IMG/VR virus record: IMGVR_UViG_2859777919_000008
Direction: 5' to 3' (one strand)
From: a virus
Taxonomy: Duplodnaviria; Heunggongvirae; Uroviricota; Caudoviricetes
DNA: 22,920 nt
Made by a program: the position numbers and the translations under genes
The notes under the pieces: generated by a model
The model's database searches: none
What the model was told of the DNA's origin: nothing
What the model saw: only the letters and a program-made list of their open reading frames with translations
Shown here: in pieces, positions 15,958-18,017 of the stretch
Position numbering within the stretch: the first letter of the stretch is position 1
Layout of the letters: each line of letters begins with the position of its first letter

Positions 15958-16119
15958 AGGTGAAAACAAATGGCTTCAAACTGGATAAAGCTCGAGGTTA
16001 TTACGCCGGATAAGCCGGAAATATTCAGGCTTGCTGAGATTCTGAATATTGATCCAGATGCCGCATTAGGGAAGGTTGAGGTGTACTGGCAATAGCGGAC
16101 ACTACCATTTGTTCTTTTT

Positions 16120-16938
16120 TTAAGCAGCCATCTGATGATATTTTTCCCTGAAGGCTGCCGGGGAGATATTCCCCAGACGAGAGTGACGACGCTGACGATT
16201 GTAGAAAATCTCAATGTATTCCCGTATTACTGAGATGGCTTCATCCCGGTTATTAAAACGATAGTGGCTCAGGCTCTCATTTTTCAGCGTTCCCCAGAAG
16301 CTTTCCATCGGAGCGTTGTCGTAACAGTTACCTTTACGCGACATTGATGTTTTCAGACCAGACTGCTCCTGTATGACCCGGTAATCGTATGCGCAGTACT
16401 GTGAACCTCGATCAGAGTGGTGGATTAGCCCGGCAGGTGGGCGCTGGCTCCTGAGCGCCATAAACAGGGCTTTACCTGTCAGCTCTTTTGTCATGCGCTC
16501 TCCCATGGCGTAGCCGACAATTTCGCACGTATAAACATCTTTGATGCCAGCAAGGTACAACCATCCCTCCTGTGTGGCAACATACGTCAGGTCCGCCACC
16601 CAGACCTGATTTGGTGCTGTAGGAGCGAACGTCTGGTTCAGCAGATTTGGCGCAACTGGCAGATTGTGGTTCGAGTTCGTAGTCGCTCTGAACTTGCGTT
16701 TCTGCTTACAGCGTAGCCTTAGCTCCTTACGAAGACGTGCCAGTCGGTCACGACCAACGATGATGCCATTCTCTGCCAGCTCCGTCTGGAGCCGCCGGGT
16801 TCCATATGTTTCGCGAGTGCGGATATGTGCCACCTTAATCTCCAGTTTTAGCCGCTCATCACTTTGTTTTCTGTCTGAGGGTTCATGCTGTACCCAGTTG
16901 TAATAACCGCTCCTGGATACACCAAATACCTGACACAT
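16120..16938 (-). CDS. IS600 OrfB (DDE transposase)
   Basis: 272 aa MCQVFGVSRSGYYNWVQHEP...HSDRGSQYCAYDYRVIQEQSGLKTSMSRKGNCYDNAPMESFWGTLKNE..., recognisable as IS600 OrfB. Confidence 0.9.
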   Translation of the reverse strand: MCQVFGVSRSGYYNWVQHEPSDRKQSDERLKLEIKVAHIRTRETYGTRRLQTELAENGIIVGRDRLARLRKELRLRCKQKRKFRATTNSNHNLPVAPNLLNQTFAPTAPNQVWVADLTYVATQEGWLYLAGIKDVYTCEIVGYAMGERMTKELTGKALFMALRSQRPPAGLIHHSDRGSQYCAYDYRVIQEQSGLKTSMSRKGNCYDNAPMESFWGTLKNESLSHYRFNNRDEAISVIREYIEIFYNRQRRHSRLGNISPAAFREKYHQMAA

Positions 16939-16973
16939 CGCTTCAATGGGAAATTGTTGTCGCCATTGTTCGA

Positions 16974-17276
16974 TTAACGCGTATTTTTCAGCGACTCCTG
17001 TGCAAAATACGCTGTTGCTTTTTTTAATATATCTCGCTCAAGGCGAGCTTCATTTAACGCCTTACGCAGTTGCAGAATTTCAGATTCCAGTTCAGCCACC
17101 GTGCGGGAACCAGGAGTACCGAGCCCTTTTCTGGCGGCGGTAACCCATTGTCCTAAAGTGCCTTCAGGAAGAGATAATCGGGAAGCGCCTTCACTGATCG
17201 AAAGTTGATTTTCAAGAACCGTTCTGACAGCTTCGGCTTTGAACTCTTTAGAGTAACGTTGGGTTTTTCTGCTCAT
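16974..17276 (-). CDS. IS600 OrfA
   Basis: 100 aa, recognisable as IS600 OrfA. Confidence 0.9.
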   Translation of the reverse strand: MSRKTQRYSKEFKAEAVRTVLENQLSISEGASRLSLPEGTLGQWVTAARKGLGTPGSRTVAELESEILQLRKALNEARLERDILKKATAYFAQESLKNTR

Positions 17277-17395
17277 TATTAGCTCCTTCTGATGCCATTC
17301 TATTTCAGGAAGGAGTGTCCGTTAAACTCAGGCTACCTCAGGTTATTCGCTTCTGGGCATGGGCGGATCAACAAATGATAGACGGTAATGCAGAT

Positions 17396-17416
17396 TGTAA
17401 CGCTCGCGGCGTTACA
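17396..17416. repeat. palindrome TGTAACGC-tcgcg-GCGTTACA (copy 2 of 3)
   Basis: 8-bp arms inside the replication gene coding sequence (codons for DCNARGVTK). Confidence 0.5.
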
Positions 17417-17605
17417 AAAAGTGCAATAGATCGCATCACTTTTATGTCTGGTTTTGCTGATGCGTTAATTCAGGTTGGATGGCTGGTCGAAAATGACGGA
17501 GGGCTTTCTCTACCTAACTTTGAACGTCATAACGGAAAAAGCTCTAAAAAAAACGGGCGGTTACAAACGAGCGAGTAACAAAAATACGCGAACTGAAACG
17601 AAAAG

Positions 17606-17624
17606 GTAACGCTGCCAGCGTTAC
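17606..17624. repeat. palindrome GTAACGCT-gcc-AGCGTTAC (copy 3 of 3)
   Basis: 8-bp arms in the linker between the replication gene stop and the DnaT-like ORF. Confidence 0.5.
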
Positions 17625-17747
17625 ACAAACGGATCAAAAAGCGTTACCAGAGGAAGAGGAAGAGGAAGATCTAAATACTGATCTCCCCCTCGCCAAAAAC
17701 GAGCGTCTAAAAAATTCGAGCCGGAGGCTATTGAGCTGCCCGATTGG

Positions 17748-18017
17748 TTGCCGGAAACACTCTGGCATGAGTGGGTCCGGTTCAGACAGGCATTGCGAAA
17801 ACCGATTCGAACGGAGCAGGGCGCTAACGGGGCGATACGGGAACTGGAAAAATTCCGTCAGCAGGGTTTTACACCTGAGCAGGTGATTCGACACAGCATC
17901 GCCAATGAATACCAGGGCCTGTTCGCGCCGAAAGGTGTTCGGCCTGAGACGTTGCTCCGACAGGTTAACACCGTCTCGTTGCCGGACAGTGCGATCCCGC
18001 CAGGCTTCAGGGGGTAA
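17748..18017 (+). CDS. DnaT (primosomal protein I) C-terminal domain-like protein
   Basis: C-terminus ...LRQVNTVSLPDSAIPPGFRG closely matches the E. coli DnaT C-terminus (...VNTVSEPDSQIPPGFRG); lies directly upstream of the dnaC homolog, as dnaT does in the host dnaTC operon. The frame is open upstream to a TGA near 17677 and the region contains an A6 run, so it may be the tail of a larger disrupted gene. Confidence 0.55.
   Translation: MPETLWHEWVRFRQALRKPIRTEQGANGAIRELEKFRQQGFTPEQVIRHSIANEYQGLFAPKGVRPETLLRQVNTVSLPDSAIPPGFRG

Follow-up and report, generated by a model that had tools for sequence, protein, structure and literature searches.

The region between positions 15970 and 18017 of the virus record IMGVR_UViG_2859777919_000008 raised the question of whether a replication gene split by an IS600 element and a DnaT-like open reading frame downstream of it are two genes, arranged as in the dnaT-dnaC operon of the host, or the remains of a single one. 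Analysis of the window (the whole stretch of 22,920 nucleotides) indicated that the region is almost certainly a recently inactivated replication-initiator gene of the YdaU family, located in a prophage remnant of Shigella sonnei and broken by three lesions. The host prophage is a Rac-like lambdoid remnant, heavily IS-ridden: besides a ydaT with a frameshift, the same 23 kb contain two further copies of IS600, one IS2, one IS110-family element, and another IS3-family element. The order repressor, cro, ydaT, initiator, ydaV matches that of six related loci (L001, L002, and L012-L015). The features of the module are the following.

14776-15183, minus strand: HTH repressor, upstream in the immunity/replication module
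15260-15487: Cro, preceding YdaT
15471-15892: YdaT, preceding the initiator gene
15970..16076, plus strand: 5' fragment of the ydaU-family pseudogene, comprising codons 1-35 and the next 2 nt, up to where IS600 is inserted
16074..16076: left GGT copy of the target-site duplication
16077..17340, minus strand: complete IS600 (IS3 family), 1264 bp
16938..16120, minus strand: IS600 orfB
17276..16974, minus strand: IS600 orfA
17341..17343: right GGT copy of the target-site duplication
17344..18017, plus strand: 3' fragment of the pseudogene, lying in three different frames owing to two indels (three-frame translation and alignment)
18024..18770, plus strand: ydaV, intact DnaC-like helicase loader of 248 aa

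The element was identified as IS600 by its ends, length, domains, and near-identity to annotated copies. Its ends are imperfect inverted repeats of the form TGAGGT...GGACAC (TGAGGTGTACTGG...GGACAC and TGAGGTAGCCTGA...GGACAC), and its sequence is 99.9-100% identical to elements on S. sonnei plasmids annotated as "IS3-like element IS600 family transposase". The two consecutive open reading frames matched HTH_Tnp_1 (1.5e-20) and the rve core of DDE transposases (8.7e-26), as well as the NCBIfam model transpos_IS3 (1.1e-99). A 3-bp duplication, GGT, flanks the element, of about 1.26 kb, at a position where intact homologs have a single GGT. The 5' fragment is identical to the intact E. coli gene at positions 3001-3107 of locus L001; the open reading frame listed for the fragment (15970..16095) extends into the IS. 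When IS600 and one GGT were excised in silico, the junction reproduced that of intact homologs exactly and without gaps, which bears out the original prediction of a replication gene split cleanly by IS600 with a GGT duplication, except that the restored N-terminal frame has 113 codons plus stop rather than the 115 codons given for it. Like other IS600 insertional pseudogenes of Shigella, this one contains the complete 1264-bp element with a 3-bp duplication (three IS600 copies are present in the 23 kb), and it shows no unusual feature in comparison with them.

The intact relatives of the interrupted gene consist of a single CDS of 789 or 795 bp (262-264 aa), placed between ydaT and ydaV, with ydaV beginning 6 bp later. 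A full-length copy was present in 680 of 5426 complete E. coli genomes, and all nine inspected loci (L001-L003, L012-L015, and the distant L018 and L020) had the single-gene organization. Fused full-length homologs with identities of 53-99% were found in seven genera, including Citrobacter, Salmonella, Klebsiella, Enterobacter, Serratia, and Yersinia, with no exception. The N-terminal and DnaT-like parts thus form one CDS in every intact homolog examined, as had been suspected when a larger ancestral fusion was proposed, and homologs in which they are two separate genes with the same stops were not encountered. Undoing the three lesions yielded a 262-aa protein 100% identical to E. coli WP_038340159.1, the repaired gene differing from the intact allele by one synonymous change in 789 nt. 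That protein matched PHROG 2509 ("replication initiation protein") end to end (residues 1-262, 1.2e-89). The relatives are named "phage replication initiator YdaU family protein" by NCBI (e.g., WP_001737256.1 and WP_038340159.1; PHROG 2509). The family resemblance extends to the slot between ydaT and ydaV and to the C-terminal domain. On the other hand, the N-terminal domain of K-12 YdaU (285 aa) belongs to Pfam DUF1376 and is unrelated, so that only the C-terminal 124 aa are shared, with 81% identity. The intact 262-aa protein comprises an N-terminal winged-helix-like domain, presumed to bind the origin, a basic-then-acidic disordered linker, and a DnaT-related C-terminal domain with its tail. 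Pfam gave no match to the initiator or its fragments, and the search of a full-length initiator model against the PDB with Foldseek returned nothing significant (every match with E >= 0.33). The ydaUVW genes have been listed as being of undetermined function (PMC11014345), and literature searches for YdaU and oriJ retrieved no functional study of the YdaU initiator or of the palindromes described below.

The copy in the window does not have the single uninterrupted reading frame of a functional member, since it is broken by IS600 and by indels of +2 and -10; it is a recent pseudogene, fixed in its lineage. Alignment with the intact genes revealed exactly these three lesions and no decay in the gene beyond them. 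The sites relevant to the two indels are the following.

17546..17553, plus strand: A8 run, +2 frameshift (A6 in intact genes), present in all eight S. sonnei loci L004-L011
17650..17667, plus strand: three GAGGAA hexamer repeats, translated as the acidic PEEEEEED run in the linker, with a copy number that differs among assemblies
17684..17690, plus strand: junction of a 10-bp deletion, second frameshift, where TCCCCCTAAATCCCCCT of the intact genes is reduced to a single TCCCCCT copy
17709..17714, plus strand: A6 run, the slip site of the original prediction, same as in intact genes
17748..18017, plus strand: residual open reading frame of 89 codons with a TTG start, corresponding to the DnaT-CTD-like domain (residues 174-262 of the intact protein)

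The shift at the A8 run terminates the N-terminal frame at a frame-0 stop in positions 17576-17578. In our reconstruction, the S. sonnei copy was destroyed by three independent events: IS600 transposed into codon 36, creating the GGT duplication, replication slippage expanded A6 to A8 (+2), and a slipped-strand deletion between two TCCCCCT repeats removed 10 bp. As a result, the three parts of the protein (N-terminal domain, linker, and DnaT-like domain) are each in a separate frame. Both the A8 run and the TCCCCCT deletion had been overlooked in the earlier map of the locus, which instead located the breakage at an A6 run placed at about 17723-17728. The run lies at 17709-17714, and although a single-base slip there would formally join the two frames, it is not a lesion, since intact homologs carry the identical A6; the frames are split by the +2 change in a different A run and by the repeat-mediated deletion. 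Altogether, these changes constitute ordinary genome decay, with no novel gene arrangement.

The intact state of ydaV, whose product is 100% identical to WP_000789009.1, a functional-looking E. coli allele, could be taken as a sign that the broken initiator has been partly exapted, with YdaV and perhaps the DnaT-CTD fragment still being expressed in S. sonnei, interacting with host DnaB or PriA/PriB, and acting on the restart of host replication; the near-identity of the DnaT-like tail (VNTVS.PDS.IPPGFRG) to that of host DnaT points in the same direction. We consider this explanation very unlikely. The single synonymous difference from the intact allele indicates that the missing decay is due to recency, not to selection, and neither promoter nor ribosome-binding signals were found for the DnaT-CTD fragment. 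Furthermore, the linker hexamer drifts in copy number among isolates, with three GAGGAA units in the window, L004, L005, and L009, six in L006, L007, L008, and L010, and seven in L011, and IS elements are taking apart the prophage around the locus. It has to be noted that, since further decay is absent, the sequence alone is not sufficient to prove the fragments functionless; they are probably not expressed.

The inactivation by three lesions was also contrasted with the explanation that only the IS600 insertion is real, both small indels having arisen through errors of sequencing or assembly. One of these indels sits in a homopolymer, a classic error site, and some of the related assemblies (L006-L011) have frameshifts in other genes that suggest long-read errors. 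However, all eight independently assembled S. sonnei loci (L004-L011) carry the same IS junction, A8 run, and 10-bp deletion, with the two indels identical across different projects, and a deletion of 10 bp bounded by repeats is atypical of read error. In addition, a hybrid open reading frame that requires both the IS end and the A8 run was found on 492 contigs (481 index blocks) named S. sonnei, whereas the IS600/ydaU junction was present in none of the complete E. coli genomes and had no exact match among GTDB species representatives. The occurrence of the lesions in eight independent assemblies, together with the hybrid frame on 492 contigs, indicates that they are neither sequencing errors nor recoding signals, and an origin of the indels in error is extremely unlikely.

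We then examined the residual DnaT-like frame. This open reading frame begins 170 nt past the frame-0 stop and ends 6 bp before ydaV, in agreement with the original prediction of a DnaT C-terminal-like frame about 170 bp downstream and directly ahead of a DnaC homolog. The 89 codons matched PHROG 6451 ("primosomal protein") at 1.7e-29. A phmmer search with the intact relative at L001 recovered the C-terminal domain of DnaT (2ru8, E 9.5e-5; 9zbt, E 3.2e-4) over residues 170-262, and hhalign gave a probability of 94% and an E value of 1.4e-7. The C-terminal ~90 residues of the initiator align with E. coli DnaT residues 92-179, domain and tail included, and in both proteins an acidic linker precedes the domain (PMC13377028, for DnaT). 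A family profile compared with DnaT in the PDB search was weaker than the single-sequence search, covering only the last 25-29 residues (E 0.5). Structural support for the three-helix bundle of the DnaT CTD is weak: a model of the isolated C-domain was of low confidence (pLDDT 58.6), its top Foldseek match, 2ru8, having an E value of 1.9 that is unusable as evidence. The protein is not a full-length DnaT: NCBIfam NF002770 scored 16-17.5 bits against a cutoff of 201, with only the last 19 residues aligned, and a winged-helix-like N-terminus takes the place of the DnaT oligomerisation domain. Most of the residues by which DnaT contacts ssDNA, defined experimentally as Y127, W128, K133, F135, K143, and R146 (PMC4132743), are also different; the residues aligned to them are K, F, F, P, S, and N, respectively. 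The pairwise alignment, which is of low confidence in this stretch, shows no conservation at four of the six (K133, F135, K143, and R146).

As in the dnaT-dnaC operon, the initiator gene lies directly 5' of a DnaC-type loader, a parallel which had been drawn for the window copy and also holds for the intact ydaU-ydaV pair. YdaV scored 510 bits with NCBIfam PRK12377 (cutoff 389) and 306 bits with the DnaC equivalog model (cutoff 357), and this score below the equivalog cutoff indicates a paralog, not the host DnaC. The likeness could suggest that the phage natively mirrors the two-gene layout of the host and that the DnaT-like frame is a genuine separate gene, given that it is open for 89 codons only 6 bp ahead of ydaV and annotated as a protein in some S. 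sonnei (e.g., FORC11_0720). There is practically no chance of this. The segment is the C-terminus of a 262-376 aa protein in every intact relative, and the upstream boundary of the frame was produced by the 10-bp deletion. It starts with TTG, the sole GGAGG lies 20 nt upstream, and no plus-strand promoter-like site was seen after the IS, the promoter/terminator consensus scan being at chance level. A stand-alone DnaT-like gene was accordingly rejected on the basis of the intact homologs: the frame is a by-product of the lesions, namely the longest segment that remains open in the third frame, and no gene.

We dismissed as having virtually no probability the explanation that, the IS disregarded, a full-length initiator is still produced by programmed ribosomal frameshifting at the A runs: although both can be read as slippery heptamers in their local frames (A_AAA_AAC and A_AAA_AAT), such that two successive -1 shifts thread the three frames, the alignment placed all intact homologs in one frame, with A6 at the first site and straight read-through at the second, the second frame change results from the deletion, which precedes the A6 run by 19 nt, and not from the run itself, neither A8 nor the deletion was seen in intact, IS-free diverged homologs (1421 E. 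coli genomes and the homolog set), and IS600 cuts the gene off at codon 36 in any case.

The loss of this initiator gene carries little weight in itself, being one more case of an IS-driven pseudogene in Shigella prophages, the decay of which is well documented. Its value lies in annotation, as a single fragmented ydaU-family pseudogene accounts for the 41-, 87-, and 89-aa "hypothetical" or "bacteriophage" proteins called in hundreds of S. sonnei assemblies, and in the clean lineage marker provided by the IS600 junction, the A8 run, the 10-bp deletion, and the variable GAGGAA repeat.

Inspection of the region also identified a palindrome, GTAACGC-N5-GCGTTAC, whose conserved copies, within the gene and shortly before it, resemble initiator-binding sites. 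The same three copies are found at the intact YdaU-family locus, and their positions in the window are the following.

15938..15956: palindrome 1, putative initiator-binding site, 32 nt upstream of the ydaU ATG
17397..17415: palindrome 2, putative initiator-binding site, within the coding region of the N-terminal domain
17606..17624: palindrome 3, putative initiator-binding site, within the coding region of the linker

These sites led us to consider that the intact family may be lambda-O-like, with an origin in and just upstream of its own gene marked by dispersed palindromes. The winged-helix N-terminal domain would read the palindromes, and the acidic linker, the DnaT-like domain, and the tail would mimic host DnaT and pass DnaB to YdaV. 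The proposal is tentative, and we judge it somewhat less probable than its negation. As in lambda O/P, a two-domain initiator (presumed DNA-binding N-terminus and helicase-recruitment C-terminus) is followed by a loader gene, and the initiator gene contains candidate binding sites, just as O contains lambda ori. In contrast to the lambda system, neither of the Pfam domains of lambda O (N- and C-terminal) gave a sequence match, an AAA+ loader of the DnaC/IstB type takes the place of the P protein as the partner, and the candidate sites are dispersed ~200 bp apart instead of forming a tandem array. The fusion of a DNA-binding domain to a DnaT C-terminal motif has already been described, in DopC, which combines an O-like HTH N-terminus with a DnaT_C motif (Brezellec et al. 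2017, PMC5509034). If the proposal is true, the IS600 insertion of S. sonnei would split the origin as well as the gene. Its confirmation would be of modest importance: for a prophage replication module that is widespread in enterobacteria but uncharacterised, the conserved palindromes would then establish both the origin and the specificity determinant.

Across loci with amino acid identities down to 52%, three to five copies of GTAACGC-N5-GCGTTAC were observed at equivalent positions, with conserved arms and variable spacers. At palindrome 3, the synonymous sites are frozen.

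The ydaU-family initiator gene in the window is interrupted by a complete IS600 whose termini are imperfect inverted repeats (TGAGGT...GGACAC). HTH_Tnp_1 and rve domains were found in its two ORFs, and Shigella sonnei plasmid copies labelled 'IS3-like element IS600 family transposase' are 99.9-100% identical to it. The recovered ORFs and ends agreed in essence with the anatomy proposed in the original prediction (IS600, GGT duplication, split gene, DnaT-like ORF and DnaC homolog), with a restored N-terminal frame of 113 codons instead of 115.

Features of the broken initiator region
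15970: ATG of a 35-codon 5' gene fragment, left of IS600
16077-17340: complete IS600, 1264 bp, both ORFs on the minus strand (ends, domains, identity to annotated copies)
16074-16076 and 17341-17343: GGT copies bordering IS600
17576-17578: stop of the N-terminal frame running on to the right of IS600
17546-17553: run of eight A, six in intact genes (+2; alignment to intact genes)
17650-17667: GAGGAA hexamer repeat of the acidic linker (around 10330-10380 in the S. sonnei loci L004-L011)
17684-17690: 10-bp loss, TCCCCCTAAATCCCCCT reduced to a single TCCCCCT (alignment to intact genes)
17748-18017: 89-codon ORF, from TTG to stop, 170 nt past the stop at 17576-17578
18024-18770: DnaC-like gene ydaV, 248 aa, 6 bp after the 89-codon ORF
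15938-15956, 17397-17415 and 17606-17624: three copies of the 19-bp palindrome GTAACGC-N5-GCGTTAC

A search with the region from which IS600 and one GGT had been taken out matched 1421 of 5426 complete E. coli genomes, 680 of them over the full length, as well as ydaU of phage Rac and genes of three E. coli phages that carry the annotation 'DNA replication protein O'. At all loci opened (L001-L003 and L012-L015) the region was one CDS, either 789 or 795 bp long (262 or 264 aa), flanked by ydaT and ydaV, with its stop 6 bp before the ydaV start. RefSeq labels this CDS 'hypothetical protein' or 'phage replication initiator YdaU family protein', and its product matches PHROG 2509 ('replication initiation protein') from end to end (1.2e-89). 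Among 5.8 billion proteins searched, full-length single-chain homologs were found with identities as low as 53% in Citrobacter, Salmonella, Klebsiella, Enterobacter, Serratia and Yersinia. The 285-aa YdaU of K-12 has an unrelated N-terminal domain (Pfam DUF1376 by precomputed hit) and shares the C-terminal 124 residues with the intact initiator at 81% identity, and the linker of a 376-aa E. coli variant is lengthened by a 125-aa insertion. Judged from the sequences of the single-CDS homologs and of the K-12 YdaU fusion, the DnaT-like part always forms the C-terminal end of a larger initiator. The proposal that the ancestral gene encoded one larger fusion protein was correct, and two separate genes with the same stops, the arrangement that would have argued against it, were not encountered among the intact homologs.

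Alignment with the intact genes revealed exactly three consequential differences: IS600, the two additional bases in the A run, and the 10-bp loss. Because of these lesions, the N-terminal domain, the basic/acidic linker and the C-terminal domain lie in three different frames. When the three were undone in silico, the encoded protein (262 aa) was 100% identical to E. coli WP_038340159.1, with one synonymous difference in 789 nt between the genes, indicating that the inactivation is recent; the ydaV product is likewise 100% identical to WP_000789009.1. The single-base slip proposed at an A6 run at about 17723-17728 did not happen there: the run lies at 17709-17714, and intact genes carry it unchanged, reading ...SKKFE... 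in frame. Altogether, the original prediction was largely confirmed, with coordinates corrected and two lesions that it had missed added. The locus is a pseudogene of recent origin, fixed in the S. sonnei lineage and derived from a known family of prophage initiators; it is an ordinary case of general prophage decay.

The 89-codon ORF could be read as a gene in its own right, but it begins with TTG, its sole GGAGG lies 20 nt upstream, and nothing promoter-like was found on the plus strand after IS600; we consider it a residual open stretch. Programmed frameshifting is ruled out because functional relatives require no shift. A sequencing or assembly artefact is ruled out as well, since the IS junction, the A8 run and the 10-bp deletion are identical in eight independently assembled S. 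sonnei loci (L004-L011), which differ from one another solely in the number of GAGGAA units (3, 6 or 7), and the 87-aa hybrid ORF, beginning in the IS600 end and terminated by the A8 shift, has exact matches in 481 index blocks and on 492 contigs. This ORF and other fragments of the pseudogene are named S. sonnei proteins in the sources (e.g., FORC11_0720/0721, SS482266_0802), and the IS600/gene junction was present in none of the complete E. coli genomes. A hybrid frame (GTG MSVKLRLPQ...) is common to both IS600 right ends (14379-14648 and 17315-17578) and extends into the flanking DNA, so gene callers output chimeric 'proteins' at each IS600 copy.

In an AlphaFold model of the intact protein, built from 29 homologs, residues 16-99 form a confident N-terminal domain with four helices and a hairpin, residues 97-159 are disordered, and residues 176-225 form a three-helix C-terminal domain, also predicted with confidence (pLDDT above 90). 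In PDB, the last ~90 residues hit the DnaT C-terminal domain (CTD) (2ru8, E 9.5e-5; 9zbt, 3.2e-4), the final 17 are near-identical to DnaT (VNTVS.PDS.IPPGFRG), and an hhalign comparison of the family alignment with DnaT 92-179 gave 94% probability. On its own, the family profile matches DnaT in the tail only; the NCBIfam DnaT model reaches 16 bits where the cutoff is 201, and of the six DnaT residues with demonstrated ssDNA binding (PMC4132743), four are not kept in the alignment. The relationship to DnaT is partial. The DnaT CTD docks on PriA and filaments on lagging-strand ssDNA, while its acidic linker occupies the PriB groove (PMC13377028); the YdaU family similarly has an invariant acidic run, LPEEEE, directly before the CTD.

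In the intact initiator, the N-terminal domain would bind the origin and the C-terminal domain would recruit the helicase together with the YdaV loader. This layout resembles that of DopC, an O-like DNA-binding domain fused to a DnaT C-terminal motif; since that fusion has already been described (PMC5509034), this likely mechanism is of a known kind. In the window it is dead.

The palindrome occurs three times in the window against none expected by chance. Its arms are found at equivalent positions in all loci of this N-terminal type (about -33 to -44, +148 to +181 and +367 to +466 relative to the ATG), in 3-5 copies per locus (five in one), and were absent from the K-12-type ydaU examined. 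Besides the window, these loci are L001, L003, L012-L015 and L017-L021, and the palindromes are kept in Klebsiella, Salmonella, Serratia and Yersinia-like homologs of 52-67% protein identity, with arms invariant or nearly so and freely varying spacers. Since one palindrome is non-coding, protein-level constraint cannot account for it; moreover, the third base is identical in all eight genes at only 4 of 34 invariant four-fold-degenerate codons, and two of these four lie in palindrome 3, where synonymous sites are frozen. The palindromes are candidates for sites bound by the initiator (iterons or operators), or for an origin, embedded in the initiator gene itself, much as lambda ori lies in O. 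A literature search on them found nothing. In the window, IS600 parts site 1 from sites 2 and 3.

The GAGGAA repeat, with 3, 6 or 7 units across S. sonnei assemblies and 3 or 4 in intact E. coli genes, is a small VNTR inside the pseudogene, and the linker as a whole is a mutational and recombinational hot spot. The linker variants observed (proteins P0002, P0109, P0127 and P0147) include an in-frame A9 allele in S. sonnei contigs, frameshifts that arose independently in S. flexneri and in other assemblies, and another indel within the same C-run. The insertion of the 376-aa variant (P0058) falls at the same linker point, and a mosaic junction with K-12-type ydaU also lies in the linker (nt 428). 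In L009 (7176-10264; GCA_001248565.1), the left side of this IS600 adjoins not the ydaU 5' fragment but a truncated K-12-type ydaV preceded by an intact 285-aa DUF1376 YdaU, which suggests that an IS600-mediated rearrangement joined two Rac-like replication modules.

Insertion sequences crowd the 23-kb window, the remnant of a lambdoid prophage, and the 1-bp deletion in its ydaT leaves ORFs of 58 and 101 aa.

Further decayed or inserted elements in the window
8971-10244: IS2
10691-11359 and 11470-11886: split IS110-family transposase gene, two ORFs (398 aa in other assemblies)
12487-13690: IS3-family element, transposase split
13693-14404: truncated IS600 (IS positions 553-1264), adjoining the IS3-family element
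15471-15892: ydaT pseudogene, 1-bp deletion between 15509 and 15510 vs the 423-bp E. coli gene
21721 to window end: third IS600 copy, inserted in a DUF1367 gene

In L004 (15645-20264), downstream of the stretch corresponding to the window, the remnant ends at a 160-aa integrase fragment beside modABC-acrZ-modE. This position differs from that of the K-12 Rac prophage, at ttcA, and only the replication module makes the element Rac-like.
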